The translations under genes were made by a program, and so were the position numbers. The notes under the pieces are model-generated. The model was not told the origin of the DNA. It saw nothing but the letters and a program-made list of their open reading frames with translations, and ran no database searches. From Chloroflexota bacterium (GTDB taxonomy: Bacteria > Chloroflexota > Dehalococcoidia > Bin125), in the NCBI GenBank assembly GCA_009838915.1, contig VXQT01000013.1:315161-379160 (forward strand): a DNA stretch of 64,000 nt, read 5' to 3'. Positions 6,945 to 40,106 of this stretch are shown here, piece after piece (the stretch's first letter is position 1; each line of letters opens with the position of its first letter).

Positions 6945-7070
6945 GTGACCCTCCGTAACCAAATCACGAGACTGCCCCCAAATGGTTGCATGATGGACCG
7001 ATCCCGATAACACTATCGACTTAGTTGATTAAACAGCAGTTCGGTCTAGCAACAAGGAGAGGGCAGGGAC

Positions 7071-7388
7071 ATGGCCAACGACAAACCGAAGACGAAGGTC
7101 CAGATAGCGAAGGCGATCGAGGAAAAGACGGGAATCGCCAGCCGCGACGTCAACGAGGTGCTCGATGGCCTCGCGGACGTGGTGCTGGAGGACCTGTCCA
7201 GCGGAGGTCCCGGCTCGGTGACCGTCGCCGGCCTGATCAAGGTGGACATCGTCGCGCAGACGGCGCGCCCGGAGCGCGAGGGTCGCAACCCGGCCACCGG
7301 CGAGACGATCACCATTGCCGCGCGGCCTGCACTGGATCGCGGAAAGGTACGCGTGCGAGCGCTCAAGCGCCTCCGCGACGTGCTCTAG
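7071..7388 (+). CDS. hup: HU family nucleoid-associated DNA-binding protein
   Basis: 105 aa, ...RNPATGETITIAARP... HU/IHF arm motif. Ribosome-binding site GGAGAGGG. It lies inside the spurious N-terminal extension of track ORF 7025..8599. Confidence 0.85.
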   Translation: MANDKPKTKVQIAKAIEEKTGIASRDVNEVLDGLADVVLEDLSSGGPGSVTVAGLIKVDIVAQTARPEREGRNPATGETITIAARPALDRGKVRVRALKRLRDVL

Positions 7389-7405
7389 CCGCCGCTGCGA
7401 CATCA

Positions 7406-8599
7406 ATGTCATCCCTTCCTGCTGCGAACGACGCCGGAAGGGAACTGATCGAGCGTCTGACTCCGCATCGGGAGCAGCTGGCGGATCTCGCGATCACGCA
7501 TGACCGCGAGGCCTCGTTTCCGTTTGCGTCCTTCGAATTGCTGCGCGAGATCGGCTGGTTCTCCGCGCCCATCCCGCGCGAGTACGGCGGCGACGAGTGT
7601 TCGCTGACCGATCTCGTCGCCGCACAGACTGCGCTGGCCAAGATCGATATGGCGCTCGCCTTCTCCTGCGGCATGCACCTGATGTCGGTTGGATCGGAGC
7701 GTTCGAATCGCAACTGGCCTGACCAGCTGCGCGAGCGCATCTTCCGCTCCGTCGTGGAGGACGGCGCACTCTGCAACCAGGTTGCGACGGAGCCCGATCT
7801 GGGTTCGCCGCAGGGCGGCGGACGCCCACAGACAGCGCTCACGCCGGGCGGACCGGGTCGCTGGCGGATCAACGGACGCAAGTCCTTCACCACGCTCGCG
7901 CCCGCGCTGACCTGGTTCCTGACCTACTGCGCAATCGAGGACGGATCGGGAATGCTCGCGCGGGTGGCCGTGCATCGCGACTCGCCCGGCTTGCGGATTG
8001 AAGAGACCTGGGACGTCGTCGGATTGCGATCAACAGGTTCGCACGATGTCTGGTACGAAGACGTTGCGGTGACGGACGACGAGTTTCTGGTTCGCCAGGA
8101 TCCCTCGCAGGCGGGCCAACGGCATGGCGACTTCGCCTGGTTCGCGCTGCTCGTCGCGGCGGCCTCGTTGGGCGTCGCGGAGGCCGCGCGCGACTACACG
8201 GTCGAGTTCGCGCGTCATCGTCGGCCTACGGGCGCGCCCGGCCCCATCGGCAGCATACCCATCGTGCGGGCACAGGTCGGCGAGATCGACCTTCGTCTGA
8301 TGTCGGCGCGGGCGCTGCTGCATGAAACCGCATCGGCATGGGATCGACTCGACGACGAGCAGCGCTACCAGCTCGGTCCGCGAGTCGCCGCGGCCAAGCT
8401 GCACGCCGGGGACATCGCCGTGGACGTGGTTGACCGCTGCATGAGACTGGTCGGCGGCGTTTCGCTGCACCGCTCGCAGCCGCTGGAGCGCTACTACCGA
8501 GACGTGCGAGGACCGCTGCACAACCCGCCGATCACGCCGCGCGGCCTCGAACTGATCGCCGCTGATGCGCTCGATCCGCTGCCCGACGTTGACTTGTAG
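7406..8599 (+). CDS. Acyl-CoA dehydrogenase family protein
   Basis: Same frame as track ORF 7025..8599; the true start is MSSLPAANDAG (ATG 7406) just after the HU stop. Acyl-CoA dehydrogenase-like N-terminal and middle/C-terminal regions (...YGGDECSLTDLVAAQ..., ...RCMRLVGGVSLHRSQPLERYYRDVR...). Confidence 0.8.
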   Translation: MSSLPAANDAGRELIERLTPHREQLADLAITHDREASFPFASFELLREIGWFSAPIPREYGGDECSLTDLVAAQTALAKIDMALAFSCGMHLMSVGSERSNRNWPDQLRERIFRSVVEDGALCNQVATEPDLGSPQGGGRPQTALTPGGPGRWRINGRKSFTTLAPALTWFLTYCAIEDGSGMLARVAVHRDSPGLRIEETWDVVGLRSTGSHDVWYEDVAVTDDEFLVRQDPSQAGQRHGDFAWFALLVAAASLGVAEAARDYTVEFARHRRPTGAPGPIGSIPIVRAQVGEIDLRLMSARALLHETASAWDRLDDEQRYQLGPRVAAAKLHAGDIAVDVVDRCMRLVGGVSLHRSQPLERYYRDVRGPLHNPPITPRGLELIAADALDPLPDVDL

Positions 8600-9748
8600 C
8601 TACTTCTTGAACGTCGAGAGCAGTCGCTCGGCAATACCCAGCCGTTGTTGGTCCAGCCCACCGGCTGTCAGTCTGAGCCACCGTACTTCGCGCGCCCATC
8701 GCTCCAGCGGCAGATCGGCGGAGCCGCCGGCCGGACCGTGCAGCTGCATCGCCCGATCGACAACAGTGTTGGCCGCATCCAGGGCGAAGGCCAATGCGGG
8801 CAGCGCCTGTTCCTCGAGCTCTTCGGCCGCCGAGAGATAGAGCGCGCGGGACGCGGATATGGCGATCTCGTTGTCGGCGAGGGCAAGTCTAGCCCGCTCG
8901 CCCTGCGCGAGCGGCGCTCCGTGTTCTCGACGCGACCAGACCACGCCTCGGCACATATCCTGGGCGGCCGACGCGATGCCAGTCAGATGCGCCGCCGTGA
9001 ACAGCCGTCGGCGCAGGACCAGGCCGTTGGCGAACGCCGGTCCGGCGTTGACCTCGCCCAAGACGTTCGACTCCGGCAGCTTCACCGCCGAGAGGTTCAG
9101 TTCCATCGTGTCGCGGCCCGTCGCGATTGTCGGCCAGGGTCTCCAGCGCTGAAAGCCCACTCGATCACACTCGACCACAATCGCAGAGATTCCCGACCGC
9201 TCGCCGGGCGTCTCCTCGGTGTTGCAGTAGACGATGCCGAAGTCGGCATTTGCGGCGTCGGCGACGAACAGCTTGGTGCCGTCCAGCATCCAACCCAACG
9301 GATGTCTCTGCGCCCGGATCCGCACGCCGTCGGTGGGCAGGAACGCGAGATCGGGGTCTTCCAGACCGCGGAAACACGACGCTTCGCGGCGCAGGAGCGG
9401 TTCGAGGAGTCGCGCACGCTGATCGTCGTCGCCGGCGTAGAGCTGCGGCGGCGGGTCGGGATCAAAGAGGCCATAGGCTGGATTGAGCGCGCCCGCTCGA
9501 TGCTGGGAGAGCTCTTCGGCGATGCGCAGGCGGTCGCCGTCCGGCAGATCGATCTGCGGACCTACCGATGCGCCGCGCGGCGCCATCAGGTGGTCAATGC
9601 CGAGCTCGCCCGCCCGTGCGAGCAGCGTGTCGAAGACGTCGTCCGGCAGGCGCGCGGCGTTGGCGTCGATCCGGCGCTCCTGCAGCCAGATTTCGTTGCG
9701 GACAAAGCGGCGAACGGCTTGAACGATCAGATCAAGTGATTCGCTCAC
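8600..9748 (-). CDS. Acyl-CoA dehydrogenase family protein
   Basis: 382 aa with an acyl-CoA dehydrogenase C-terminal domain (...AAQDMCRGVVWSRREHGAPLAQ...AMQLHGPAGG...). GTG start with a GGTGAG ribosome-binding site. Tail-to-tail and abutting the acyl-CoA dehydrogenase at 7406-8599. Confidence 0.75.
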   Translation of the reverse strand: MSESLDLIVQAVRRFVRNEIWLQERRIDANAARLPDDVFDTLLARAGELGIDHLMAPRGASVGPQIDLPDGDRLRIAEELSQHRAGALNPAYGLFDPDPPPQLYAGDDDQRARLLEPLLRREASCFRGLEDPDLAFLPTDGVRIRAQRHPLGWMLDGTKLFVADAANADFGIVYCNTEETPGERSGISAIVVECDRVGFQRWRPWPTIATGRDTMELNLSAVKLPESNVLGEVNAGPAFANGLVLRRRLFTAAHLTGIASAAQDMCRGVVWSRREHGAPLAQGERARLALADNEIAISASRALYLSAAEELEEQALPALAFALDAANTVVDRAMQLHGPAGGSADLPLERWAREVRWLRLTAGGLDQQRLGIAERLLSTFKK

Positions 9749-9766
9749 GATCCACTCACCGTCCGC

Positions 9767-10981
9767 TCATCCCAGCGCGCCGCTCTCGGCCAGCGCCGCG
9801 ATCTCATCGTCCGACAATCCTGTCTCCCGCAGGACCTGTTGGGTGTGCTGCCCGGTCTTCGGAGCCGGTCCTCGCGGCCCGATATCCGCGCCCTCGATCT
9901 CGAACGGCGTGTTGAGCGTACGGAACCTGCCTTGCGCACCGTCGATCATGCTCCAGGCGCTCATTTCTTCCATCTGCGGGTCTGCAATGACCTCCGGCAA
10001 CTCGGCAACCGGAGCCCAGGTCAAGGCTTCGGCGTCCAGCCTTGAAATCCACTCGACGAGCGGCCTCGTGCGAAAGGTTGCGGCAATCTCGGATGTGAGT
10101 TTGGAGGTGTGTGCCGCCCGCCCGAGCAGGGTCGCGTAGCGCTCGTCGGCGGCCAGGTCCTCGCGACCCAGCGCCCGGCAGGCCGGCTCCCAGTAACGAT
10201 CGCCGGTCGGCATGACCAACATCAGCCAGCGCCCGTCGGCGGTCTCGTAGGAGTTGAACAGCGGATTGCCGGGCAGCACGCGATTGATTCGCTGCGGCTG
10301 TTGCTCCGTGATCAGCGCCGCCGAGACGTCCGAGCCAATCGTCCAGGCGCCCGTCCGTTGCAACGTCACCTCGACGTACTGTCCTTCACCCGTCATGTCG
10401 CGCAATCGCAGCGCCGCCAGCGTGCCTGCCAGCAGGTTGAGCGCCGTCGCGTGGTCGCCCTGTCCCGGACGGCAGGGCATCGGCGGACCGCCCGGCTCGC
10501 CGATCAGGCTCATGATCCCCGACCGCGACCAGAAGGCCGAGTAGTCGAAGGCGGTCTTGGCGTTGTCGGGCCCGCGAGTGCCGTAGCCGGTCAGCACCAC
10601 GTAGATCAGACCGGGATTGACCCGCTGCAGCGACTCGCGCGACAGGTCGTATCGCTCGATGCGCGGCGCGGTGAGGTTGGTGATGAAGATGTCGGAGTCG
10701 GCGACCATCCGCTTGACTGTCTCGCCGGCGCCAGGACGCTCCAGCGACAGCGCCACGCCGCGCTTGCCGCGGTTGTCCAGCTCAAACGGCGCGTCGACGT
10801 CGGTGTCCGGATCGAAGTCCGCCTTCTGGCCGCGCATCAGGGTTGTGCGCCAGGCGTCGCCTCCGGGATGTTCAACCTTGACCACGTCGGCGCCAAGATC
10901 AGCCATCAAGGCTGCTGCCGAGGGCGCGGCGAGCCAGTTTGCCACCTCCACAACCCGAATTCCCTCAAGCGGCGCAACCAT
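9767..10981 (-). CDS. CoA-transferase family III (CaiB/BaiF) protein
   Basis: N-terminus LEGIRVVEVANWLAAPSAAALMADLGADVVKVE and family-wide conservation. Lies 18 bp upstream of the acyl-CoA dehydrogenase at 8600-9748, so a probable operon. Confidence 0.88.
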   Translation of the reverse strand: MVAPLEGIRVVEVANWLAAPSAAALMADLGADVVKVEHPGGDAWRTTLMRGQKADFDPDTDVDAPFELDNRGKRGVALSLERPGAGETVKRMVADSDIFITNLTAPRIERYDLSRESLQRVNPGLIYVVLTGYGTRGPDNAKTAFDYSAFWSRSGIMSLIGEPGGPPMPCRPGQGDHATALNLLAGTLAALRLRDMTGEGQYVEVTLQRTGAWTIGSDVSAALITEQQPQRINRVLPGNPLFNSYETADGRWLMLVMPTGDRYWEPACRALGREDLAADERYATLLGRAAHTSKLTSEIAATFRTRPLVEWISRLDAEALTWAPVAELPEVIADPQMEEMSAWSMIDGAQGRFRTLNTPFEIEGADIGPRGPAPKTGQHTQQVLRETGLSDDEIAALAESGALG

Positions 10982-11043
10982 AGCCAGACCCTTCGTTAGC
11001 TTGCAGTCCGATCCTACTTGCCGCAGCAGTGAAGGAGCCGATC

Positions 11044-12408
11044 ATGCAGCACCGACCGACCGCCGCTCGCGTACCCGACTCGGGCATTTGCGAACTGTTC
11101 ACCCGCGAGGCGCGCTGGCAGTCCTGGCTCGACGTCGAGGCGGCCCTCGCACGCGCCGAGGCCGAGCTTGACATGATTCCCGCCGACGCCGCCGTGCAGA
11201 TCACCGAACACTGCCGGCTCGAGCTGTTGGACATGGAGAAGATTGAAGCAATTCTGGCCGTCACGGCGCATCCGCTGGTCCCACTGATCTGGGAGTTGGA
11301 CCGAATCCTCGGCGACGAGATCGGCGGCTACGTACACTGGGGCGCGACCACGCAAAACATCACTCAGACCGGCGACATCTTGCAACTGCGCAAGGCGCAC
11401 GAGATCATCCTGGGACAGATCGGGCAGGTCCTGGCGCTGCTCGCGCCCTTGGCAGAGCGCCACGCCGACGATCCTTGCGCCGGGCGCACGCACGGACAGC
11501 ACGCCGTCCCGGCAACCTTCGGCTACAAGGTCGGCGCATGGATCGACGAGCTCTGCCGACACGTCGAGCGGCTGCACGATGCTGAACCGCGCATCTTCGT
11601 AGCCATGCTAGGCGGCGCAGCCGGCACGCTCGCCTCATTCGGCGCGCCCGGTCTCGCAGTTCAGGAAGGCCTGGCGCGGCACCTCGACCTGCTGCCGATG
11701 CCGGTCCCCGGTCGCACCAGCCATGACCACCACGCCGAGTACGCCGCCATCCTGGCGATGCTTGCCGCTACCTCTCGCAAGATCGCGGACGAGACCTACA
11801 CGTTGATGAAGCCCGAGTTCGGCGAGATCGAGGAGCCGGTGCCGCCCGGCACCGTGGGCAGCAGCACGATGCCGCAGAAACGCAATCCCAAGCTCTCACA
11901 GGACATTCGCGCCGCCGCCGCGCAGGTGACGACGCTGTTCCCGCTCGCGCTCGACGCGATGCGCACGGAACACGAGGCCGACGGTTCGACCAGCGTCATG
12001 ATCGAGCGAGTCCTCCACGGCTCGATCGAGCTAGTCGGTGACATCCTCTCACGGCTGGCGGTCCTGTTCGACGGCATCGAGGTGAAGCCTGAGCGAATGC
12101 GACAGAACCTTGACCTGTCCGGCGGACTGATCATGAGCGAACGAATCATGCTCGCGCTGGGCGAGCGTGTCGGTCGTCAGCGCGCCCACGATGTGGTCTA
12201 CGAACACGCGCAGGACGCCGCCGTGCAACAGGTCTCGTTCCGCGATCTGCTGGTCGCTGACGAAGAAGTCCGCCGACATCTCTCGGAGGCGGAGCTCGAC
12301 CATTTGCTGGACCCAGCTTCGTACACAGGCGCATGTGGGGACATCGCCCGAGCACAGGCCCAACGGGCGCGCGAGTTCGCGGAAGGTCTAGACTCCGCCC
12401 AGAGCTGA
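11044..12408 (+). CDS. Fumarate-lyase superfamily enzyme (3-carboxy-cis,cis-muconate cycloisomerase / adenylosuccinate lyase-like)
   Basis: GSSTMPQKRNP signature motif. AGGAG ribosome-binding site 7 nt before the ATG at 11044 (track ORF began at 11029). Confidence 0.8.
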   Translation: MQHRPTAARVPDSGICELFTREARWQSWLDVEAALARAEAELDMIPADAAVQITEHCRLELLDMEKIEAILAVTAHPLVPLIWELDRILGDEIGGYVHWGATTQNITQTGDILQLRKAHEIILGQIGQVLALLAPLAERHADDPCAGRTHGQHAVPATFGYKVGAWIDELCRHVERLHDAEPRIFVAMLGGAAGTLASFGAPGLAVQEGLARHLDLLPMPVPGRTSHDHHAEYAAILAMLAATSRKIADETYTLMKPEFGEIEEPVPPGTVGSSTMPQKRNPKLSQDIRAAAAQVTTLFPLALDAMRTEHEADGSTSVMIERVLHGSIELVGDILSRLAVLFDGIEVKPERMRQNLDLSGGLIMSERIMLALGERVGRQRAHDVVYEHAQDAAVQQVSFRDLLVADEEVRRHLSEAELDHLLDPASYTGACGDIARAQAQRAREFAEGLDSAQS

Positions 12409-12439
12409 GCAACACCCCTGTTGCGGAATCGAGTGCAAC

Positions 12440-13123
12440 ATGTTGAAGTGGATCGTCCCCGTCACGAAGAAAGAGGGCATCGACAGCGATACCTTCTACG
12501 AGTTCTGGCGCTGCATCCATGCGCCGCACGTCGCCAACCTGGCCAAGCCGGAGCGCTACTGCGTCACGCTCTTCGACAGTACGGCGTCATTGGGCGGCGC
12601 GCCGGCTGCAGAGGAGATGGCCTACGACGGCCTGGCCGAACTCTGGTTCCGCGACTTCGAGCACTTCACCGACGCCTTCGGCGAGCATCGCGGAAATCTC
12701 CGCACGATCGACGGCTTCCAGGAACTGATCGAGCCGACAACCGACGCGATGTTCACGACCGAGCACTCTTATGTCAATGCACCAACGAATGAGGATGCCC
12801 TGAAGTGGGTCGCGTTCGTCAGGCGCGGTGAGAGCGTGACGCCCGACCAGCTCTTCGCCGCCTGGCGTAACGAGCACTCACCGAGAGTGACCAATACGAT
12901 CGCCCGATCCGAGGGCGCCTGCATCGGTTACACCACCTCACACGCCGACCAGGGCGGAGCGGACCCCACATGGGACGGCATCGCCTCCCTCTGGTATGCC
13001 GACGCCGGCGCTGTGGCGAGGGGTCTCCCGCCCTCGGACGAACCGGGCGATCCGTTCCCGGGACTGATCGACGGGGCGGCAACGGTCATCCTGCAGGGAC
13101 GCGAGATCACGGTCGTCTCCTAG
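12440..13123 (+). CDS. Tandem EthD-domain (Dabb-type alpha+beta barrel) protein
   Basis: Two internal repeats: ...FYEFWRCIHAPHV...YDGLAELWFRDFEHF... and ...LFAAWRNEHSPRV...WDGIASLWYADAGAV... Confidence 0.7.
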   Translation: MLKWIVPVTKKEGIDSDTFYEFWRCIHAPHVANLAKPERYCVTLFDSTASLGGAPAAEEMAYDGLAELWFRDFEHFTDAFGEHRGNLRTIDGFQELIEPTTDAMFTTEHSYVNAPTNEDALKWVAFVRRGESVTPDQLFAAWRNEHSPRVTNTIARSEGACIGYTTSHADQGGADPTWDGIASLWYADAGAVARGLPPSDEPGDPFPGLIDGAATVILQGREITVVS

Positions 13124-13155
13124 ACTGACAGGCAACGCTACGAACGGAGCCCGCG

Positions 13156-14493
13156 ATGCGATTTGGAATCTTCTACGAGCACCAACTACCCAAGCCGTGG
13201 AGCGAGGGACAGGAACAACAGCTCTTCCAGGACGCCCTCGATCAGGTCGAACTGGCTGACAAGCTGGGCATCGACCACGCCTGGGAAGTCGAACACCACT
13301 TCCTCGAGGAGTACTCCCACTCCTCCGCTCCGGAAGTGTTCCTGGCAGCCGCCTCGCAGCGAACGCAGAACATCCGCCTCGGGCACGGCATCGTGCTGAT
13401 GCCTCCGGGCTACAACCACCCCGCCCGCGTCGCCGAGCGGATCGCGACGCTCGATCTGGTCTCCAACGGGCGGGTCGAGTTCGGCACCGGCGAGTCGGCT
13501 TCACGCGCCGAACTCGAGGGCTACATGGTCAACCCGGAAGAGCGCCGCGCGATGTGGCGCGAGACCGTCGAGCAGGTCGCCAACATGCTGGCCATGAACC
13601 CGTATCCGGGCTACGAGGGCAAGTATTTCTCGATGCCGACTCGCAACGTCGTACCCAAGCCGGTGCAGAAGCCGCACCCGCCGCTCTGGGTTGCCTGCTC
13701 CAACCGTGACACGATTCACCTCGCCGCCAAGCTGGGCATCGGCGCGCTGACCTTCGCCTTCATCGATCCGGCCGAGGCCGAGCACTGGGTCAACGACTAC
13801 TACGAGACGATCAAGACCGAGTGCGTGCCAATCGGCCACACCGTGAACGCGAATATCGCCATGGTCTCCTCATTCTCGGTGCATCCCGACGCCGACGAGG
13901 CCGAGCGTCGCGGCGGCGATGGCTTCCGCTTCTTCCAGTTCGCCCTGGGGCATCACTATGCCGCCGGCATGCACAAGCCGGGCCGAACCAACATTTGGAA
14001 GGCCTGGGAGCAGCTCCGCGACACCTGGCCGAGCCAGGGCGGCGAGGGCGGCATTGGCACCCCGGACGAACTGCGCGAGCACCTGCGTATCTTCTCCGAG
14101 TGCGGCGTCGACCAGTCGGTCTTCATCCAGCAGGCCGGCAAGAACGAGCACGAGCACATCTGCGAGTCGCTCGAGATCTTCGCGCGCGATGTCATGCCTG
14201 AGTTCAAGGAGTTTGAGGCCGAGCGCGTCGCCAAGAAGGAAGAGGAACTCGCGCCCTACATCGAGGAAGCGTTCAAGCGCAAAGCCGAACGTAATGAGAT
14301 GATGGCCGAACTCTCGGACGAGGACATCCCCGTCTACCCGCCTTACGGCTTCGATGTGGTTACCAGCTCCAACCGTCTCAGCGAGGAGTACCACCACGAA
14401 GAGGCCGAAAAACGAGCACAGGAACAGGCCGCCCGCTTCGAGGAGATGAAGAAGACCGCCAACCTCGCGGTCGAACTGGGGGCGCGGGACTAG
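13156..14493 (+). CDS. LLM-class flavin/F420-dependent oxidoreductase (luciferase-like monooxygenase) with a charged C-terminal extension
   Basis: Luciferase-like TIM-barrel core ending ...ESLEIFARDVMPEF, followed by a ~90-aa E/K/R-rich tail. GGAG ribosome-binding site. Confidence 0.8.
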   Translation: MRFGIFYEHQLPKPWSEGQEQQLFQDALDQVELADKLGIDHAWEVEHHFLEEYSHSSAPEVFLAAASQRTQNIRLGHGIVLMPPGYNHPARVAERIATLDLVSNGRVEFGTGESASRAELEGYMVNPEERRAMWRETVEQVANMLAMNPYPGYEGKYFSMPTRNVVPKPVQKPHPPLWVACSNRDTIHLAAKLGIGALTFAFIDPAEAEHWVNDYYETIKTECVPIGHTVNANIAMVSSFSVHPDADEAERRGGDGFRFFQFALGHHYAAGMHKPGRTNIWKAWEQLRDTWPSQGGEGGIGTPDELREHLRIFSECGVDQSVFIQQAGKNEHEHICESLEIFARDVMPEFKEFEAERVAKKEEELAPYIEEAFKRKAERNEMMAELSDEDIPVYPPYGFDVVTSSNRLSEEYHHEEAEKRAQEQAARFEEMKKTANLAVELGARD

Positions 14494-14599
14494 CGACGGC
14501 TCACGCCGGTCGCGACGCGACCGACAGTTCGAAGATTGCCGCGCCAGCAGCGCCAGAGGCTGTATGTCCGTAGCGTCGTCTGGAAGATGCGAGCAGCTG

Positions 14600-15490
14600 T
14601 CAGGTCAGAGGATTGAGCGATACCGCGCTTCCGACCAGGTCAATCGCGGTGTGCAGCTTGCGCCGGCCGACAAATGCAGCGCGTCCGTACAGTTCACCGA
14701 TCGCTTCCACCGCTTCGAGCGTCGACATTGACGTGGTGATCAGCGCAAACGATTCCCGCTCGGCACGCTGCGCGACGTACGGCAGCGTCGGCTCGCCTCC
14801 GGCCAGGATCAGGCAGAGCGGTTCATAGTCGAGCGCGCCCAGGGCGATGTCGATCCGATCGTGTCGGGTGACCAACGTCTTGTCCGGGTACTTGCGGAAG
14901 TAGTCCATGCCCTCGTGCGCGCTGACCGGCCCGATTACGAGGTCTCGGGACGACTCGTCGAACAGCGCTTCATCTCCCGAGAGCGCGCCTTCGATTGCCG
15001 GCGCGATATCGTTGACCGTCGGCGCAGCAAGGTGTCGATCCTGCGGCAGCGCGCACACTGCACTTGCTGTACTTGCTCCCATGCCGCTCACCCTCGCGAT
15101 CGCCTCCGCGTCGCCGTACTGCGGCACGGCGTTGATAACCACCAGATCCGGAGCGAGCGACTCCAGCGCTCGTGCCACAGTGTCGTCGTCGGCCTCGCCG
15201 TGGCGAGTCACGAGCACCGTCCGATCACCTTCGATACCCGAGGCGTCACCTGCCTCAATCACCACGTGGTCGGTATCAAATGCGATGTCCGTCGGCGCGA
15301 CCGGCTGCCCACTGCTGCGCACGCCGTTGACCTGCGAGAGCTGCACGGCGTCGGCGGACGCGGAGTCCGAGTCGCCGACGCGCTCGAGCCGAACCGTGGC
15401 GCCGGTCGCTCGGAGCGCCGCGGCGATACCTGCGGCAACCACCGACTTACCGTCTCCGGGCAGCGTGGATGTGACGAGAATGCTGGCCAC
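14600..15490 (-). CDS. Standalone phosphotransacetylase-N-terminal-like protein (BioD/CobQ-type P-loop + DRTGG domain)
   Basis: P-loop TSTLPGDGKS and a DRTGG-like LILAGGEP motif. Start reassigned to GTG at 15490 (VASILV...) with a GGGGAG ribosome-binding site; track ORF began at 15556. Confidence 0.6.
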   Translation of the reverse strand: MASILVTSTLPGDGKSVVAAGIAAALRATGATVRLERVGDSDSASADAVQLSQVNGVRSSGQPVAPTDIAFDTDHVVIEAGDASGIEGDRTVLVTRHGEADDDTVARALESLAPDLVVINAVPQYGDAEAIARVSGMGASTASAVCALPQDRHLAAPTVNDIAPAIEGALSGDEALFDESSRDLVIGPVSAHEGMDYFRKYPDKTLVTRHDRIDIALGALDYEPLCLILAGGEPTLPYVAQRAERESFALITTSMSTLEAVEAIGELYGRAAFVGRRKLHTAIDLVGSAVSLNPLT

Positions 15491-15655
15491 GTGAGGCTCC
15501 CCATCTCCATTTGCGCACCTGGCCCTGTTGGGCCTCAGCACAGAGCCTAGAGCCAAGCGAGCATACGCGCTGAGGCCCGGGGCAGGCCATCGCTACCGCA
15601 GGCGTGGCTAGACTGACGGCATCGTCCGCTCAGAATCGTCAGCGAGGCCAGCGAG

Positions 15656-16008: not shown

Positions 16009-18489
16009 ATGACGAACGAGGGGTCGGACACGCTGTTGCAGGGCGTGCGAGTGCTGGATCTGGCGACGCCGCGGGCGGAGATGACCGGACGAGTCCTCGC
16101 CGACATGGGCGCGGAAGTGATCAAGGTTGAGCCATCTGCAGGCGCCGACGCCCGTCGGCTTCCTCCGTTCAGCGACTCGGAACCCGGCCGCTCGCTGTAC
16201 TGGGCGCAGATGGGATTAGGCAAGCGCAGCGTCGTCATCGACCTGGACTCCGCGCCGGGCCGCGATGAGTTCCGTTCCCTGCTCGCAACCGCCGATGTGC
16301 TGATCGAGTCGTTCGATCCCGGCACGATGGCGAGCCTGGGACTGGGCTATGACGATGTCAAGAACGAACTCCCGGATCTGATCTACGTATCGGTGACGCC
16401 GTACGGACAGGATGGACCCCACGCCGACCGTCCGGCAACGGATCTGACGCTCGAGTCTGCCGGTGGGCTCGTCGGCCTGCAGGGTGACGGCGACCGTCCA
16501 CCGGTACCGGTGGGATTGCCGCAGGCATCGATCCATGCCGGCGTCCAAGCGGCGGCTGACACCTCGATTGCCTTGCGCGAGCGTGAGCTGTCGGGTCTCG
16601 GTCAGCACCTCGATGTGTCGATGCAGGCAGCAGTCGTATGGACGCTGATGAACGCGACCGGGTTTCCGCCAAACACGGGCGGCGATCCGCCCGGCACCTG
16701 CGCTGAGCGCGGCGGCGGCGAAGCGAACTCCGCCGGGGCGGTCATGGGCGTCCATCCTTGCCTCGACGGCTACATCGTGTTCAGCATCGTGCCCGGCGGA
16801 CTGGGACTGCGACACTCAACCCTGGTCCTCAAGTGGATTGAGGAAGAGGGTGAGCTCACTGGCGAGTTGGAGGGCGTTGACATCGACGAGTGGGCGGCCA
16901 AGATCGCTCGTCTTGTGACCGAGGATCCGGCCGAATTGGGTCGACAGGTCTTGATCGCGACCGAGAACATGCATCAGTTCGTCGCCAAGAAAACGATGGC
17001 CGAGTGTTTCGAGCGAGCGGTGCGGGACAGCTTCATGATGGCTCCGCTCTACACGATGGAGGACATCGCCAACGACTCGCACCTGGCGGCCCGAGACTTC
17101 TGGGTGGATATCGACGGACATCGATATCCCGGACCGTTCGCCAAGCTCTCGGAGACGCCGCTGCAGCTCACGCGACCGGCGCCGGCGCTTGGGCAGGACC
17201 AACATCTGCTCGCCGAGGTCGACGGTGCGCGGAGGCAGAAGTCGCGCGCTCAAATCTCCGCCAACGGCGTGCGCGGCGCGGACGGCGGCGCGCTGCATGG
17301 CGTCAAGATCGCCGATTTTGCCTGGGTCGGCGTGGGACCGCTGATCTCGAAGTCGATGGCCGACCACGGCGCAACCGTCGTGCACATCGAGTCGGCGACG
17401 CGGCCGGATGTGCTCCGACTCGCCCCGCCGTTCAAGGACAACGAGCCGGGCATGGACCGTGCTCAGTTCATGGCCAACTTCAACTCGTCAAAGATTGGGG
17501 TCGCGCTACGCCTTGACACGGAACAAGGACACGAATACGCGCGCCAGCTCATCGAGTGGGCCGACGTCGTGGTTGAATCGTTCACTCCGGGCACGATGAA
17601 GCGGTTCGGCTTCGACTTCGCCACGCTGAGCCAGGAACGTCCCGAGCTGATCATGCTCAGCACCTGCCTGCGCGGCCAATCCGGCCCGGAGTCGACATAT
17701 CCCGGCTTCGGTCTGCAAGGCGCCTGCCTCTCAGGCTTGCATAGGATCACCGGCTGGCCCGACCGTCAACCCGCGGGTACCTGGGGCGCGTACACGGACT
17801 TCATTAATCCCCGCTTCGGGTCCGGCGTGCTGGCCGCAGCAATTCGGCATCGCGACCTGACCGGTAAGGGACAGTACATCGACCTGGCACAGAGCGAAGC
17901 GGGTATCCACTTCGCAGCCCCGTTACTCCTCGATTATCTCGAAAACGGCCGCGTCGCGCGGGCGCCGGGCCACGACTCGATGTACGCGGCGCCCAACGGC
18001 GTGTTCCGCGTCGGCGAGGGCGAACGCTACGTGGCGATCGCCAGCGAAACCGCCGAGCAGTGGAGCGCGCTGCGGGATGCCGCCGGACTGGAACCCTGGT
18101 CGGGAGCCGAGTACGACGACCTTTCGGAGAGGATCGCGGCCAAATCGGAGATTGAGGCCGCGCTTGCCGACTGGTGCGCTCCGCAGACCGCCGATGCGGT
18201 GGTCGAGTGCCTGACTTCCCTCGGCGTGCCGGCGTCGGTCGTGCAATGGCCTTCCGACCTGTACCAGGATGCTCAGCTCAAGCACCGAAACTTCTTCGTC
18301 ACGTTGAATCACTCGGTGATGGGGCCGACACCATACGACGGGCTGGTCACCAGGTTCTCGGGCGGCACCGCGAACCTGCGTCGCGCGGCGCCGGCGATCG
18401 GCGAGCACACGCACTACGTACTTTCGGAGATTCTCAACGCGTCGGACGACGAGATCACGGATGCACTGGTTGCCGGCGTGTTGCAGTAG
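16009..18489 (+). CDS. Fused tandem CoA-transferase family III protein (two CaiB/BaiF domains)
   Basis: 826 aa. Domain 1 begins LQGVRVLDLATPRAEMTGRVLADMGAEVIKVE; domain 2 begins LHGVKIADFAWVGVGPLISKSMADHGATVVHIE. Start reassigned to MTNEGSD (ATG 16009, GGAG ribosome-binding site). Confidence 0.8.
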   Translation: MTNEGSDTLLQGVRVLDLATPRAEMTGRVLADMGAEVIKVEPSAGADARRLPPFSDSEPGRSLYWAQMGLGKRSVVIDLDSAPGRDEFRSLLATADVLIESFDPGTMASLGLGYDDVKNELPDLIYVSVTPYGQDGPHADRPATDLTLESAGGLVGLQGDGDRPPVPVGLPQASIHAGVQAAADTSIALRERELSGLGQHLDVSMQAAVVWTLMNATGFPPNTGGDPPGTCAERGGGEANSAGAVMGVHPCLDGYIVFSIVPGGLGLRHSTLVLKWIEEEGELTGELEGVDIDEWAAKIARLVTEDPAELGRQVLIATENMHQFVAKKTMAECFERAVRDSFMMAPLYTMEDIANDSHLAARDFWVDIDGHRYPGPFAKLSETPLQLTRPAPALGQDQHLLAEVDGARRQKSRAQISANGVRGADGGALHGVKIADFAWVGVGPLISKSMADHGATVVHIESATRPDVLRLAPPFKDNEPGMDRAQFMANFNSSKIGVALRLDTEQGHEYARQLIEWADVVVESFTPGTMKRFGFDFATLSQERPELIMLSTCLRGQSGPESTYPGFGLQGACLSGLHRITGWPDRQPAGTWGAYTDFINPRFGSGVLAAAIRHRDLTGKGQYIDLAQSEAGIHFAAPLLLDYLENGRVARAPGHDSMYAAPNGVFRVGEGERYVAIASETAEQWSALRDAAGLEPWSGAEYDDLSERIAAKSEIEAALADWCAPQTADAVVECLTSLGVPASVVQWPSDLYQDAQLKHRNFFVTLNHSVMGPTPYDGLVTRFSGGTANLRRAAPAIGEHTHYVLSEILNASDDEITDALVAGVLQ

Positions 18490-18550: not shown

Positions 18551-19732
18551 ATGGGTAAGCGCACCATGCGCGGCGAGACGGCGATCATCGGCGTCGGTGA
18601 GACAACCTACTACAAGCGCGGACGCTCGCCGGATGCCGAGTTCAAACTCGTGATCGAGGCGATCCTCAAGGCCAGCGCTGACGCAGGCATCGACCCGCGC
18701 GAGATCGACGGCTTCGCCTCCTACTCCAACGACCGCAACGACCCCTCGCGGATCGCCGCGGCGTTGGACATCAAGGATCTGCGCTTCTCCAATATGGAAT
18801 GGGGCGGCGGCGGCGGCGGCGGTTCGGCGGCCTGCGCGCACGCCGCTGCCGCAGTCGCGACCGGACTCGCCGACACGGTGGTGGTGTTCAGAGGACTGGC
18901 TCAGGGTCAGTTCGGACGCTTCGGTCAGGGCGCACGTGTGCCTCACGTGCGCGGCGACCAGGCGTACACGGCACCCTATGGGCTGATGTCGCCGGCGCAG
19001 TCCTTCGCGATGCGTGTCCACCGCCTGTTCGACGACCACGGGATCACGCAGGACACGCTGAAGGCTTGCTCGCTCGCGTCCTACCACCACGCGCAGAACA
19101 ACCCCCGCGCCGTCATGTACGGCCGACCGCTCTCGCCCGAGGACTACGACGCCTCGCGCTGGATCGTGGAGCCCTTCCACCTGTTCGACTGCTGCCAGGA
19201 GAACGACGGCGGCGCAGCGATGATCTTTGTCTCGGCGGATCGCGCCAAGGACTTCGCCAAGACCCCGGTCTACTTCCTCGGCGGCGCCGTCGGCTCCGGC
19301 AATCGGGCGGGCTCCGGTTCGCACAACGCCACCGACTACGCCACCTCGAACTTCAAGACGGTTGCGCCGCGCATGTACGACATGGCCGAGGTCAAGCCGG
19401 AGGAAGTCGATGTCGCGCAGGTGTATGAGAACTTCACCGGTGGCGTCGTGATGAGCATCATCGAGCACGGCCTGACCAGCTACGAAGAGGCAAACGACTT
19501 CATCACCTTCGAGAACCTCACCGCGCCGGCCGGCAAGATGCCGATCAACACCAGCGGCGGCAACCTCGCCGAGTGCTACATGCACGGGCTGGAACTGAAC
19601 ATCGAAGCCGTGCGCCAGGTGCGCGGCGAGTCCTGCAACCAGGTACCGGACGTGAACGTCTCGTTGGTCGCATCCGGTCCGATGGTCACCCCGGTCTCCG
19701 ACATGATTGTCGGTTCTGAGGCGGTGCTCTAA
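18551..19732 (+). CDS. Thiolase-like lipid-transfer protein (SCP-x/Ltp-type nonspecific thiolase)
   Basis: 393 aa with thiolase-fold N- and C-terminal regions (...NTSGGNLAECYMHGLE...). Paired with the downstream DUF35 gene. Confidence 0.8.
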   Translation: MGKRTMRGETAIIGVGETTYYKRGRSPDAEFKLVIEAILKASADAGIDPREIDGFASYSNDRNDPSRIAAALDIKDLRFSNMEWGGGGGGGSAACAHAAAAVATGLADTVVVFRGLAQGQFGRFGQGARVPHVRGDQAYTAPYGLMSPAQSFAMRVHRLFDDHGITQDTLKACSLASYHHAQNNPRAVMYGRPLSPEDYDASRWIVEPFHLFDCCQENDGGAAMIFVSADRAKDFAKTPVYFLGGAVGSGNRAGSGSHNATDYATSNFKTVAPRMYDMAEVKPEEVDVAQVYENFTGGVVMSIIEHGLTSYEEANDFITFENLTAPAGKMPINTSGGNLAECYMHGLELNIEAVRQVRGESCNQVPDVNVSLVASGPMVTPVSDMIVGSEAVL

Positions 19733-20181
19733 TGGCGAATCCTCCAAGGTACTACCTGGGCGAGGGCATGCCCGCCCCTGCTCCGGCGATTGACGGACTC
19801 GACACTGAGTACTGGGAAGGTCTCAAGCGGCACAAGCTGTTCGTTCAGCACTGCCACACCTGCGACCGCCCACAGTTCGGGCCCGAATGGGTCTGCCACA
19901 TCTGCCACAGCTTCGATCTTGGCTGGCGAGAGGTCGAGGGCAACGGACGGATATTCTCCTGGGAACGGGTCTGGCACCCGGTCCATCCTGCGCTGCAGGA
20001 CTCCTGCCCCTACCTCGTTGTCCTGGTCGAGTTGCCGAACCACGAAAACGTCCGCATGGTCGGAAACTTGCTCGGCGACCCGATGCAGACGGTTCAGATT
20101 GGCGCTGAAGTCCGCCCCGTCTTCGAGGACCACGACGGCGACGATCCGTACACGCTCGTGCATTGGGAAGTCGTCGAATAG
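19732..20181 (+). CDS. DUF35 Zn-ribbon/OB-fold protein (ChsH2/thiolase-partner type)
   Basis: CHTCDRPQFGPEWVCHIC zinc ribbon plus an OB-fold. The start overlaps the thiolase stop (TAATG). Confidence 0.8.
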   Translation: MANPPRYYLGEGMPAPAPAIDGLDTEYWEGLKRHKLFVQHCHTCDRPQFGPEWVCHICHSFDLGWREVEGNGRIFSWERVWHPVHPALQDSCPYLVVLVELPNHENVRMVGNLLGDPMQTVQIGAEVRPVFEDHDGDDPYTLVHWEVVE

Positions 20182-20261
20182 CAGGCGCAACCTCACTTCG
20201 CACGCGATTGCCGCGGTTCTGACAGCGTCGCGGGCATTACTTGGCCCGCGTGCATCCGGCC

Positions 20262-21104
20262 CTAGTCGCCTGTGGCAGCCTGTGCTCGCAGAAACTCCGT
20301 GACCAACGCCGCCGTCCGCTCGGGATGTTGGATGTGCGGGAAGTGACCGCAGTCGTCCCAGACGTGGATCTCAGCGTCGGCGAAGGTCTCCTGCTGGCGC
20401 TCGGCGTATCTCCAACTGATGAACGGGTCGTTCTTGCCGTAGATCACCAGCGCCGGAAGATCGCGGGGCGACAGCGCCTGGCCCAGGATGTGTCCCTCGT
20501 CGAAGTCGGTGTTGCGATACAGCTCCAGCGTGACCCGGCGCGTGTCGCGGTCGTCCTCGGTGATCAGTTCGTCCAGCCACTGCGGATGCAGCCCGCGCGG
20601 GTTGCCCCAGCGCATGAACAGCTTGAAGGCGGGACGGGTCGTAATCAACTGGAGGATCTCGCCGGCGTGCTTCGTGCGCCAGATGTTCGCCACCAGGTTG
20701 CCGGGATAGTCCTCCAGCACGCCGCCGTCGAGCAGCATGACCGACGCGCACTTGTCCGGGTTCATTGCCGCCCACATCAGGCCTGTCTGTGTATGGAAGC
20801 TATGCATCAACAGATGGACTCGCCTGAGCCCGAGTTCGTCCAGTGCGGGTGACAGCCAGGTCTGATAGCCCTCGATCGAGTAGGGGAAGCCTTTCGGCTT
20901 GTCGGCCCGACCGAATCCGGGCAAATCGATCGCCACGACCCGCATGACCTCACTGATCGCAGGCATCACGAACTGGAAGTCGCGGCCCGAGCCCGGGACT
21001 GAGTGCAGACAGACGACGGCCTCTTCGCTGTTGTCGTCGCCAAGTTCCGTAACCACTCCAGCGACGCCGTCAATCGTGAGCCGCGACTCCCTGAGCTCAG
21101 TCAT
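20262..21104 (-). CDS. Alpha/beta-hydrolase fold protein
   Basis: Start reassigned to MTELRESRLTIDGV (ATG 21104). Canonical alpha/beta hydrolase topology (...AIDLPGFGRADKP..., ...VWDDCGHFPHIQHP...). Confidence 0.75.
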   Translation of the reverse strand: MTELRESRLTIDGVAGVVTELGDDNSEEAVVCLHSVPGSGRDFQFVMPAISEVMRVVAIDLPGFGRADKPKGFPYSIEGYQTWLSPALDELGLRRVHLLMHSFHTQTGLMWAAMNPDKCASVMLLDGGVLEDYPGNLVANIWRTKHAGEILQLITTRPAFKLFMRWGNPRGLHPQWLDELITEDDRDTRRVTLELYRNTDFDEGHILGQALSPRDLPALVIYGKNDPFISWRYAERQQETFADAEIHVWDDCGHFPHIQHPERTAALVTEFLRAQAATGD

Positions 21105-21645
21105 CGGGGGTCCTCGTCTGAGTCGGTTGGCCTGAGGCGATCTGAGCCTGAGCTGTTCTCTCGCTTCCATTGGACATCGCAGCAGTCCCATTTGCGATCG
21201 GCGTCACGCACCACGGGCAGATTTGCCAGCTCGGGTCCAGGACGCGCTCGCACGTCGCGCAAGAGGAGCGAAGCGGCAAGGTGCAGCGCGGGCAGGCAAG
21301 GTAGTCCGCCAGGATCTCGCAACCGCAGCGCGGACAGGGCGGCGTCTGCTGGAGCTCGCGGGTCAGCGCGCTCGATTCCAGCCGATGCTCCTCCGCCTCC
21401 TGCAGCGTCAGCGGCGGGCGCAACACGCGGTAGACAACCAGTCCCGGGAAGTTGAAAATCAGCACAATCAGCGTGAAGACGATCTGCGCCATCGGTTCGA
21501 TTGTGCGCTGGTGAATGTCGCGCGCCGTCCAGACCACCGCAGAGAGCCAGAGCACGACGAAGTAGGCGCCGACGATCAGCGCGAGTATCAGGCCGGTGTT
21601 CTCAGGTGAGCCCCCGGGCCAGGAGATGCCGACGCCGTCGAGCAT
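21097..21645 (-). CDS. Membrane protein with C-terminal double zinc-ribbon
   Basis: Two N-terminal TM helices, then CPRCGCEI...CPRCTLPLRSSCATCERVLDPSWQICPWC. Its stop overlaps the hydrolase start by 8 nt, which suggests translational coupling. Confidence 0.7.
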   Translation of the reverse strand: MLDGVGISWPGGSPENTGLILALIVGAYFVVLWLSAVVWTARDIHQRTIEPMAQIVFTLIVLIFNFPGLVVYRVLRPPLTLQEAEEHRLESSALTRELQQTPPCPRCGCEILADYLACPRCTLPLRSSCATCERVLDPSWQICPWCVTPIANGTAAMSNGSERTAQAQIASGQPTQTRTPDD

Positions 21646-30905: not shown

Positions 30906-31916
30906 TTAGCCGACGATCTGCGCGAGCACGTCGGCCCACTCGCGGTCGTCCTCGGTGTCGACCGACACCTGGTGCAGGTCGACTCCAGCTGCAGTCTGTT
31001 CCTCGATATGCCGAACGCACTCGTCGAGTGATCCCCGGCAGGAGAAGCGCGGCGCGATCTCCAATGCGATCTCCGCCGCCGCGCCTGGACCACCATCCTG
31101 CCACGCGTCGCGCATGGCGGCGACTTCGTCGCCGAACCCGTGCCGCTCGAACTGCCGGAAGTAGCCCGGACCGTTGCGCACGGCAAAGAACGAGAGTCCC
31201 TGCGCGAACCCTCGGTCAAGATCCGCCTGCCGCTCCGCAGCAAGCACCACGGTCGCCGACCCAGGCGAGCGGACCTCCACCGCCTCGGCGCTCCTGCCGG
31301 CGTCCACCGACCAGTGCCGCACCTGCGCGATTGACTCAGAAACCCGGTCGTTGGGAATCCAGGTCGGCATCCAGCCGTCGGCGATCTCGGCCGTCATCTT
31401 GACCGAGGTCGGATTCAACGTCGCCAGGTGGATTGGCGGAGTGCGCTGCGACGGGATCATCCCGCTGACCAGCGCTCGCTCCACGTGAATCGTGGGGCCG
31501 TCGTAGCTGAAGCGTTCGCGCGACCAGTACAGCCGGATCAGTTCGACCGCCTCGCGGATGCGGGCGAACGGCCGCTCGAACTTGACGCCGTGAAACCGCT
31601 CGATCGCGCCAGGCGCGCTGGCGCCCAGACCAACCACCACGCGTCCCCCCGATAACTGATCGACCGTGCCGAAGCTCTGCGCCAATGTCGCCGGTGTGCG
31701 CGAGAACACGTTGACGATCGCTGATGCAATCCGCACGTTCGACGTCTCGTGCGCCAGCAGCGCCATTCCGGTGAACGCGTCGTGACCGTATCCCTCGATC
31801 ACGCAGATCGTGTCGACGCCAATCTGGTCGGCCAGCCTCGCGCGGGCGAGGAAGGTGTCGACGAAGTCGGGATTCCAGGGCAGGTTGACGGACACGCGCC
31901 GCGTCACTGATGTCAT
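30906..31916 (-). CDS. LLM-class F420/flavin-dependent oxidoreductase
   Basis: Luciferase-like domain. Start reassigned to MTSVTRR (ATG 31916), which overlaps the upstream methyltransferase stop (ATGA). Confidence 0.8.
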   Translation of the reverse strand: MTSVTRRVSVNLPWNPDFVDTFLARARLADQIGVDTICVIEGYGHDAFTGMALLAHETSNVRIASAIVNVFSRTPATLAQSFGTVDQLSGGRVVVGLGASAPGAIERFHGVKFERPFARIREAVELIRLYWSRERFSYDGPTIHVERALVSGMIPSQRTPPIHLATLNPTSVKMTAEIADGWMPTWIPNDRVSESIAQVRHWSVDAGRSAEAVEVRSPGSATVVLAAERQADLDRGFAQGLSFFAVRNGPGYFRQFERHGFGDEVAAMRDAWQDGGPGAAAEIALEIAPRFSCRGSLDECVRHIEEQTAAGVDLHQVSVDTEDDREWADVLAQIVG

Positions 31917-40041: not shown

Positions 40042-40061
40042 GGGCCCAGGCTCCATGCCGT

Positions 40062-40089: not shown

Positions 40090-40106
40090 CGATCCATCGG
40101 AAACAG

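Follow-up and report, generated by a model that had tools for sequence, protein, structure and literature searches.

The stretch of DNA analysed here, referred to as the window, comprises 64,000 nucleotides (nt) of contig VXQT01000013.1 from a Chloroflexota bacterium (assembly GCA_009838915.1), whose lineage is one of marine or sponge-associated Dehalococcoidia metagenome-assembled genomes (MAGs). It carries two gene pairs, each encoding a thiolase-fold protein (LTP_1 or LTP_2) and a free-standing DUF35 protein of the Zn-ribbon/OB-fold type (DUF35_1 or DUF35_2; Table 1). In pair 1, LTP_1 comes first, and at the junction CTC-TAATG-GCG one A is common to its stop codon and the start codon of DUF35_1. 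In pair 2, DUF35_2 comes first and is followed by LTP_2 after a gap of 39 nt. All four open reading frames, and the TAATG overlap, are found where a preliminary description of this DNA had placed them. Both DUF35 proteins score above the Pfam gathering scores for zf-ChsH2 (PF12172) and OB_ChsH2_C (PF01796). The two thiolase-fold proteins belong to the clade of the aldolases Ltp2 and Sal, have lost the canonical Cys, retain a catalytic Tyr and are members of families in which the adjacency of a DUF35 gene is conserved. The window contains no further thiolase-fold gene and lacks a classical thiolase signature, in agreement with the earlier remark that a classical β-oxidation thiolase is missing.

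The active sites can be read against three standards. SCP2 thiolases have a Cys at the canonical nucleophile position and an H-D-C-F motif. TcLtp2 has a Gly at the nucleophile position, a Y294-D-H-F motif that provides the base and the oxyanion hole, and Tyr344 as the acid, while CtSal has a Gly at the same position, Y302-D-C304-Y and Gln352 (PMC12329534). Both LTP_1 (Y-E-N-F) and LTP_2 (Y-D-A-F) have a Tyr where thiolases have the His of the HDxF motif. In a neighbour-joining tree with 300 bootstraps, for which reference sequences were rebuilt from PDB alignments, the LTP_1 family is sister to TcLtp2 (287/300, 96%). The LTP_2 family joins the PDB entry 4U4E in all 300 bootstraps, and these two group with CtSal in 210 (70%). 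The aldolase-like proteins, that is, both LTP families, TcLtp2, 4U4E and CtSal, stand apart from the DUF35-partnered thiolases 7YVY, 6ESQ and BbsB in 300 of 300. The kinship to the Ltp2-ChsH2 retro-aldolase that had been suggested is therefore borne out for both proteins, neither of which clusters with ordinary acetoacetyl-CoA thiolases. They are only 31% identical to each other. With the NCBIfam BbsB model they score 66 and 115, below its cutoff of 750. Since both lack the canonical nucleophilic Cys and have a Tyr for the His of HDxF, the name thiolase, under which both pairs were first described, is probably wrong.

The best PDB match of LTP_1 is TcLtp2 (6OK1_A, 1.3e-72, residues 6-390, 37-38% identity). 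The same structure ranks first in a Foldseek search with the AlphaFold2 (AF2) model (7e-34, TM 0.81), followed by 4U4E, 9MYR and thiolases. The nucleophile elbow of LTP_1 reads W84-GGGGGGG-S (G85-G91), with no conserved Cys, and is invariant in 121 homologues, as are the Y292-E-N-F motif and Y343 in A-E-C-Y343-M-H-G. When LTP_1 is aligned to Ltp2, Y292 corresponds to Tyr294 and Y343 to Tyr344 (G-E-A-Y344-I-H-G), so that Tyr343 occupies the place of the catalytic His in the G-H-P-x-G motif of thiolases.

The LTP_1 family is found with 66-73% identity in Pseudomonadales/Azotimanducaceae, Myxococcota, Acidimicrobiales, Alphaproteobacteria and Acidobacteriota. An identity gap sets it apart: the representatives of its own 50%-identity clusters are 62-65% identical, the next relatives at most 47%. 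In an alignment of 97 full-length LTP_1-related cluster representatives at 50% identity (from P0241-P0390), nearly all have a Gly at the Cys column and begin the motif with a Tyr. At its third position N, C, A and H occur in comparable numbers, with Y-[DE]-N-F the commonest form; because of this variation, the sequences point to many uncharacterised active-site variants among the thiolase-fold aldolases. Within the Dehalococcoidia, LTP_1 has 95-99% amino acid identity (median 96%) to most of its 28 species-representative homologues (L004-L031), while identity in the genes that adjoin it in the same loci spans 61-89% (medians 71-80%). Synonymous differences affect about 33% of the conserved LTP_1 codons among these homologues. 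Recent horizontal transfer is thereby rejected as the cause of the high identity, and the synonymous differences indicate instead that LTP_1 is under very strong purifying selection, to a degree that is unusual for a peripheral catabolic enzyme.

LTP_2 has its closest structural relative in 4U4E_A (8.6e-125, 57% identity), an uncharacterised 'putative thiolase' from a structural genomics project on Sphaerobacter thermophilus, also a member of the Chloroflexota. 9MYR_A (Sal), 6OK1_A (Ltp2) and thiolases follow, and Foldseek with the AF2 model gives the same order (4U4E at 1e-40). The signature of LTP_2 is V-G-G80-C81-S, Y289-D-A-F and S-Y-x-H349-x-G-x-Y353. It recurs in 80 metagenome loci; Tyr289, His349 and Tyr353 are invariant in 121 homologues, and Y289 in all 201 family-2 sequences with a readable motif. 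4U4E has the layout GG-x-S / Y-D-x-F / S-Y-x-H-x-G-M-Y-G in common with LTP_2, but differs in having Y-D-S-F and a Ser at the site of Cys81. The nearest characterised relative is CtSal (9MYR, 33% identity), which with its DUF35 partner Shy is the bile-acid C5 side-chain aldolase of Comamonas testosteroni and is followed by the aldehyde dehydrogenase Sad. LTP_2 resembles CtSal in the Gly at the Cys column and the Tyr of Y-D-x-x. It differs in having Y-D-A-F for Y-D-C-Y, so that Ala291 is at the place of the catalytic acid Cys304 of Sal, in having His349 in the loop of Gln352, and in having a conserved Cys or Ser right after the Gly.

A DUF35 gene lies directly 5' of the LTP_2 homologue in 76 of 80 metagenome loci, and 29 of the 120 best LTP_2 homologues (P0173-P0225) are natural DUF35::thiolase-like fusions with DUF35 first. 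Around orthologues of 62-63% identity in Chelatococcus, Roseibium and a MAG with the fused form (L091 4093-14240; L175 4332-14261; L092 4806-14880), there is a fixed operon in the order CaiB, MaoC hydratase, DUF35, LTP, aldehyde dehydrogenase, SDR, ACAD and double CaiB (822-841 aa). The first CaiB gene is on the operon strand in Chelatococcus and on the opposite strand in the other two. The start of the aldehyde dehydrogenase gene overlaps the stop of the LTP gene, and TRAP or TTT transporters and regulators are located near these operons. The succession of hydratase, aldolase and aldehyde dehydrogenase known from Shy-Sal-Sad thus recurs in the orthologous operons but is absent at the window copy. 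In these culturable bacteria, the operon gives the impression of an 'aldolytic' route of acid degradation that is still uncharacterised. More distant metagenome homologues, with 50-61% identity, keep only the DUF35 partner and have no MaoC/aldehyde dehydrogenase arrangement.

Pair 2 might also be read as a BbsAB-like or SCP2-like thiolase for bulky or branched 3-oxoacyl-CoA, in which Cys81, activated by His349, would act as the nucleophile from a position one residue off, and DUF35 would be structural. We regard this as unlikely, though not negligible. Cys81 is indeed present in 116 of 121 homologues (96%) and in 80 of 80 metagenome homologues, a set that is biased as one search pattern required VGGCS. 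In gap-free pairwise and multiple alignments, however, the canonical Cys column falls on G80, one residue ahead of Cys81. Four fused orthologues (P0201, P0206, P0215 and P0220) have a Ser at residue 81 and a fifth (P0219) has a Gly; P0201 (578 aa) is confirmed to lie inside the conserved MaoC-DUF35-LTP operon. Since these orthologues and 4U4E do without a Cys, the sequences argue against Cys81 as an obligatory thiolytic nucleophile. In the AF2 model, Cys81 is two residues ahead of helix 83-95, which would be compatible with a nucleophilic elbow, a weak indication because the pLDDT of the loop is below 50. The invariant His349 corresponds to the canonical GHP His of thiolases, with which it aligns in 7YVY and BbsB, while HDxF has its His replaced by an invariant Tyr, as in aldolases, and no true thiolase is as near to the family as Sal and Ltp2 are. 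The order of pair 2 is that of bbsA-bbsB, and DUF35_2 gives a match to BbsA, but with E = 0.16. Finally, the SDR, ACAD and hydratase of the orthologous operon would complete a β-oxidation cycle, and an SDR gene lies directly 3' of about 14 of 80 distant LTP_2 homologues; against this, it is an aldehyde dehydrogenase gene that is translationally coupled to the LTP gene in the operon.

The DUF35 partners point in the same direction as the aldolase-like residues of the larger subunits. DUF35_1 has a CxxC-x10-CxxC zinc ribbon (C41, C44, C55, C58), in which all four Cys are invariant (86/86), and DUF35_2 has CxxC-x9-C-x4-C (C32, C35, C45, C50), with the Cys kept in at least 75 of 79 sequences; in both proteins the four Cys are the predicted zinc ligands. 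The best PDB matches are the DUF35 of CtShy, 9MYR_B (8e-18 for DUF35_1 and 1.4e-22 for DUF35_2), and that of ChsH2, 6OK1_B (4e-15 and 6e-17). The DUF35 partners of thiolases or acyltransferases (6ESQ_E, PhlB and BbsA) match both proteins far more weakly than these aldolase partners, as with the archaeal thiolase partner 6ESQ_E and DUF35_1 (2e-5). In CtShy, the zinc site is Cys3His and the DUF35 is fused to a hydratase, whereas family 2 has four Cys (CxxC-x9-Cx4C) and a DUF35 that is free-standing or fused to the aldolase. In ChsH2, the DUF35 is the C-terminal domain of the MaoC hydratase, whereas DUF35_1 is a separate protein of 149 aa. The DUF35 need not be fused to a hydratase, since the HBC operon of M. 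neoaurum, atf1 (aldolase) - chsH4 (free-standing DUF35 of 138 aa) - chsE6 - kstR3, already provides a precedent (PMC10398937). There, as in pair 1, the aldolase gene is followed by that of a free-standing DUF35 of about 140 aa; the system differs in being sterol-induced and acting on a C24 steroid CoA ester. A related pair, AedK/AedL, takes part in oestrogen degradation (PMC8913865).

All four genes of the two pairs have Shine-Dalgarno sites, and the GC content at third codon positions (GC3) of LTP_1 and LTP_2, 0.87 and 0.86, is the highest in the window. Together with the invariant or nearly invariant zinc-ligand Cys, these features indicate that the pair genes are not degenerate, and the DUF35 genes in particular are intact.

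DUF35 proteins also bind true thiolases, and in the benzoylsuccinyl-CoA thiolase BbsAB (7PXP) and the archaeal thiolase/HMG-CoA synthase (HMGCS)/DUF35 complex (6ESQ) the bound subunit has an SCP2-type thiolase fold, as in the window. Those enzymes differ in having the Cys at the canonical position and H-D-A/C-F, where LTP_1 and LTP_2 have Gly and Tyr. Family III CoA-transferases are likewise part of the bbs pathway, and IpfD/IpfE of ibuprofen degradation are a further precedent for an SCPx-like protein with a DUF35 partner. It is extremely improbable that the pairs serve condensation or biosynthesis, whether as a thiolase/HMG-CoA synthase scaffold of archaeal type or as an acyltransferase of PhlABC type. 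DUF35 does act as a scaffold in such complexes (6ESQ, 5M3K), and the fold is similar to those of PhlC and the archaeal thiolase (TM about 0.75), but the catalytic Cys is absent, the DUF35 proteins of thiolase or PhlB type match poorly, and neither an HMGCS gene, among the annotated genes, nor a PhlA/KAS-III-like gene turns up in the window or the homologous loci that were examined. The analogy to the archaeal HMG-CoA synthase scaffold that had been drawn for the pairs thus has to be given up.

In family 1, 77 of 80 loci have the DUF35 gene directly 3' of the LTP_1 homologue (51 of 52 distant and 26 of 28 close ones). Because the position of DUF35 is constant within each family, the pairing of the genes is no product of chance, and the opposite order of the two pairs, to which the preliminary description drew attention, is real but is no local peculiarity: each order is a fixed trait of a separate, widespread family. 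A CaiB gene is directly 5' of the LTP_1 homologue in each of the 28 Dehalococcoidia loci, as well as in L032, L033 and L037 of the Chloroflexota. The arrangement CaiB2x-LTP_1-DUF35_1, with the upstream CaiB/ACAD/ACAD/OMT/DRTGG block, is syntenic only within the Dehalococcoidia, and the genes 3' of pair 1 are not conserved even in relatives in which LTP_1 is 97% identical. In other phyla, a divergent MaoC hydratase gene lies 5' of the LTP_1 homologue in 19 of 52 loci, mostly at a distance of up to about 300 nt. These counts are from tblastn, since GC3-based gene calling missed genes in lower-GC genomes and found the adjacency in 6 loci. The MaoC neighbour has two domains and is of the MFE-2 hydratase-2 type. 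In none of the 80 loci does an aldehyde dehydrogenase gene turn up within 6 kb of the LTP_1 homologue. LLM, PhyH, SDR and ECH genes recur near other family-1 loci without forming a fixed operon.

With TcLtp2-ChsH2, the steroid C3 side-chain retro-aldolase of Thermomonospora curvata and of the M. tuberculosis igr operon (6OK1), pair 1 has much in common: the SCP2-type thiolase fold, the Gly for Cys, both catalytic Tyr, an obligate-looking DUF35 partner with a C4 zinc ribbon, the sister position in the tree and, in other phyla, an adjoining MaoC hydratase gene. It differs in its modest identity to TcLtp2 and in having no ChsH1/H2, ChsE1/E2 or steroid genes nearby, with a double CaiB gene upstream instead. 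The pair-1 family also has a different range, which spans marine Chloroflexota, Gamma- and Alphaproteobacteria, Myxococcota, Acidimicrobiales and Acidobacteriota.

The other genes of the window that had been listed as one CoA-catabolic mosaic with the two pairs are all present by Pfam: three CaiB genes with four domains, two ACAD-fold genes, Lyase_1, EthD, LLM, ECH and SDR (Table 1). The protein announced as BioD/DRTGG has the DRTGG domain, the only one detected in it. The mosaic itself does not hold together. The pairs are about 18 kb apart, and UvrD/PcrA, MazG, Lit, a sensor protein, MFS, amidase, DinB, PncA, NAPRTase, sulfite reductase and SpoU genes lie between them, while the ECH and SDR genes are another 18 kb past pair 2. 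PEP carboxylase, glutamate synthase and protease genes are found elsewhere in the window. As to the conservation of gene neighbourhoods, the pairs are kept, and so is the CaiB2x-LTP_1-DUF35_1 block within the Dehalococcoidia, whereas the other flanks are mostly not conserved.

Table 1. Positions of the two gene pairs and of other features in the window
Feature	Position	Strand	Details
LTP_1, thiolase-fold protein	18551-19732	+	393 aa, ATG...TAA; Pfam Thiolase_C_1 5e-26
DUF35_1, free-standing Zn-ribbon/OB-fold protein	19732-20181	+	149 aa; Pfam zf-ChsH2 + OB_ChsH2_C
GC-rich hairpin between convergent DUF35_1 and α/β-hydrolase genes	20225-20253	+	ViennaRNA fold of 20182-20262; no T-tract
DUF35_2, free-standing Zn-ribbon/OB-fold protein	38383-38799	+	138 aa; Pfam zf-ChsH2 + OB_ChsH2_C
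LTP_2, thiolase-fold protein	38839-40041	+	400 aa; Pfam Thiolase_C_1 6e-57
GC-rich hairpin between convergent LTP_2 and MFS genes	40059-40091	+	ViennaRNA fold of 40042-40107, -34 kcal/mol
CaiB2x, double-domain family III (CaiB-type) CoA-transferase	16009-18489	+	Pfam CoA_transf_3 twice, 9.8e-164
CaiB family III CoA-transferase	9767-10981	-	Pfam
CaiB family III CoA-transferase	42497-43750	+	Pfam
ACAD-fold gene	7406-8599	+	Pfam
ACAD-fold gene	8600-9748	-	Pfam
Lyase_1/ADSL_C	11029-12408		Pfam
Tandem EthD	12440-13123		Pfam
LLM	13156-14493		Pfam
Second LLM	30906-31958		Pfam
DRTGG protein	14600-15556	-	DRTGG the only domain detected
ECH	57670-58470	-	Pfam
SDR	58525-59346	-	Pfam

These arrangements bear on the idea that a single catabolic island, made up of both pairs and every CoA-related gene in the window, serves a steroid-like or otherwise unusual acyl-CoA, which is very improbable. 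Many CoA-linked genes do lie within the 64 kb, sponges are rich in sterols, and the relatives of Ltp2 and Sal are so far known only from steroid catabolism. The gene groups are, however, split by housekeeping genes, synteny past CaiB2x-LTP_1-DUF35_1 and its upstream block is confined to the Dehalococcoidia, and conservation is lost downstream of pair 1. In the window there was no sign of a ring-cleavage gene or of a ChsH1/H2 or ChsE gene of the steroid type. Since the partner hydratases elsewhere are of the generic MFE-2 type, the orthologous operons have TRAP/TTT carboxylate transporters and steroid genes are missing, the substrates are probably not steroids, and neither the window nor the homologous loci lend support to the suggestion of a steroid-like substrate. 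That the compound is an unusual acyl-CoA, branched or alicyclic, is still a reasonable, if speculative, idea.

The reading that we prefer, with a probability of about 0.62, is that the window contains two unlinked modules, each consisting of an aldolase of the Ltp2/Sal clade and its own DUF35 protein, which would cleave non-steroid 3-hydroxyacyl-CoAs. The pairs are taken as separate modules because of the housekeeping genes between them and their non-conserved flanks. Confidence in an aldolase is higher for pair 1 and lower for pair 2. By analogy with the α-β-β-α structures of Ltp2-ChsH2(DUF35) and Sal-Shy(DUF35), each pair would form a complex stabilised by DUF35. This complex would cleave a 3-hydroxyacyl-CoA by retro-aldol chemistry to a carbonyl compound and acetyl-CoA or propionyl-CoA, and neither complex would carry out thiolysis of a 3-oxoacyl-CoA. 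In pair 1, Tyr292 would by homology be the base that acts on the β-hydroxyl and Tyr343 the acid, with Asn294 replacing the His of the oxyanion hole. In the Dehalococcoidia, the double CaiB upstream would load the acid substrate onto CoA, and it may also recycle the acyl-CoA product as CoA donor. The carbonyl product of pair 1 would be a ketone, as with Ltp2, because the protein is Ltp2-like and no aldehyde dehydrogenase gene is near it in any locus. The subclade of pair 2, like Sal, would be likely to form an aldehyde, since its closest orthologues in operons are flanked by a MaoC hydratase gene on one side and, on the other, by an aldehyde dehydrogenase gene coupled to them in translation.

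Several points weigh against this proposal. For pair 2, they are the ones already given for a thiolase: the frequency of Cys81, the thiolase-like His349, the full set of β-oxidation-cycle activities in the operon (SDR, ACAD and hydratase) and the SDR genes 3' of distant homologues. For pair 1, the Y-E-N-F motif is not the Y-D-H-F of Ltp2, with an Asn at the His of the oxyanion hole and a Glu at the Asp, and the lipid-transfer protein model PRK07855 of NCBIfam, which we take to be the Ltp2 model, gives LTP_1 357.7 bits, below the cutoff of 469. For both, the tree is without sequences of SCP2 thiolases, SLP, Atf1 and AedK, and the AF2 models have pLDDT values of 74.6 (LTP_1) and 74.3 (LTP_2), with active-site loops below 50. 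No homologue of a MaoC hydratase or an aldehyde dehydrogenase is found in the 64-kb window, which leaves the source of the 3-hydroxyacyl-CoA unexplained unless CaiB loads 3-hydroxy acids directly. The function of both families is, after all, a prediction from sequence and gene context.

A wider proposal covers both families jointly and is tentative. The pair-1 family would be a cross-phylum, non-steroid 3-hydroxyacyl-CoA lyase of marine and aquatic heterotrophs, and the family of pair 2 and 4U4E a second, aldehyde-forming aldolase. An example for pair 1 would be the ketone-forming cleavage of tertiary β-hydroxy CoA esters derived from alicyclic or β-branched acids, a reaction of the type of (1-hydroxycyclohexan-1-yl)acetyl-CoA lyase (EC 4.1.3.35), for which we know of no assigned gene. 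In the pair-2/4U4E family, a new catalytic set (Tyr, His and Cys/Ser) would drive an 'aldolytic β-oxidation' of small carboxylates. Searches of the literature for genes of cyclohexylacetyl-CoA lyase, and for a link between SAR202 or sponge Chloroflexi and such pairs, yielded nothing useful.

DUF35-dependent thiolase-fold aldolases (Ltp2, Sal, Atf1 and AedK) are, in the literature consulted, documented only for the degradation of steroid side-chains and rings (among others PMC10398937, PMC8913865). The two LTP families differ from these in their active-site variants (Y-E-N-F with Tyr; Y-D-A-F with His and Cys/Ser), their domain organisation and their non-steroid context. Public annotation names both families "acetyl-CoA acetyltransferase" or "thiolase". 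If the aldolase reading is true, a widespread annotation error would be corrected, with thousands of 'acetyl-CoA acetyltransferase' labels wrong, and thiolase-fold aldolases would be a general catabolic device with no speciality in steroids. A step of C-C cleavage would be added to models of branched and alicyclic acid degradation in SAR202-like or sponge-associated Chloroflexi and marine Proteobacteria, and new aldolases with different active-site variants would be available for biocatalysis. If it is not true, the window has an ordinary pair of uncharacterised thiolase paralogues.

The limits of the transcription units were judged from gap sizes, ribosome-binding sites and hairpins. CaiB2x and LTP_1 are separated by 61 nt, and CaiB2x is probably co-transcribed with pair 1. 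The GC-rich hairpins at 20225-20253 and 40059-40091 probably mark the ends of the pair-1 and pair-2 transcription units. A scan for consensus promoters and terminators around pair 1 gave no promoter-like sites and terminator-like sites at chance level, and did not call the hairpin at 20225-20253. The start of CaiB2x is ambiguous: the longest open reading frame has 890 aa from a GTG at 15817, while the called gene has 826 aa from 16009. Its nearest NCBIfam models are dicarboxylate CoA-transferases, with a score below every cutoff; none of the neighbouring genes in the window reaches a curated NCBIfam cutoff, so that proximity to dicarboxylate CoA-transferases is the only clue to a substrate from this source. 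The ACAD-fold gene on the plus strand (7406-8599) has its top NCBIfam scores with flavin monooxygenases of the SfnB/DszC type rather than acyl-CoA dehydrogenases, all below cutoffs, and may therefore not encode an acyl-CoA dehydrogenase.

Compared with the loci L004-L023, positions 6282-15556 of the window appear to carry an inversion and an insertion. In most of these relatives, the CaiB/ACAD/ACAD/OMT block is co-oriented with CaiB2x-LTP_1-DUF35_1, and neither the tandem EthD (EthD2) nor the LLM gene was seen at the equivalent site. Downstream of pair 2, positions 41406-49644 hold a cluster of 2-Hacid_dh, CaiB, a 119-aa open reading frame, 2-Hacid_dh, an HpaI/GarL-like class II aldolase, Ldh_2, MarR and MFS genes. 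Since the MFS, 2-Hacid_dh, CaiB, small open reading frame, 2-Hacid_dh, HpaI-like aldolase and Ldh_2 genes flank the 71%-identical pair-2 homologue of L174 in the same order, this cluster may be functionally tied to pair 2. The 119-aa open reading frame (43752-44111) was considered as a hidden hot-dog hydratase and rejected, as it has no Pfam match even at E = 0.1.

Among the gammaproteobacterial relatives of pair 1, an annotated locus has a MaoC gene facing the LTP-DUF35 pair and a gene for a 471-aa protein, with unrelated genes around them. This protein (545 aa as the longest open reading frame; L176 9625-11040, L047 11617-13254) is encoded directly 3' of the pair-1 homologues in about seven gammaproteobacterial loci and has no significant Pfam match. 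In a gammaproteobacterial genome, the gene of an ankyrin-repeat protein (L084/L085 5271-6257) adjoins the pair-1 homologue; ankyrin repeats are typical of sponge symbionts. In the window itself, pair 1 is followed by the α/β-hydrolase gene at 20262-21191, the start of which is ambiguous (309 or 280 aa), the longer form overlapping a DZR zinc-ribbon gene.

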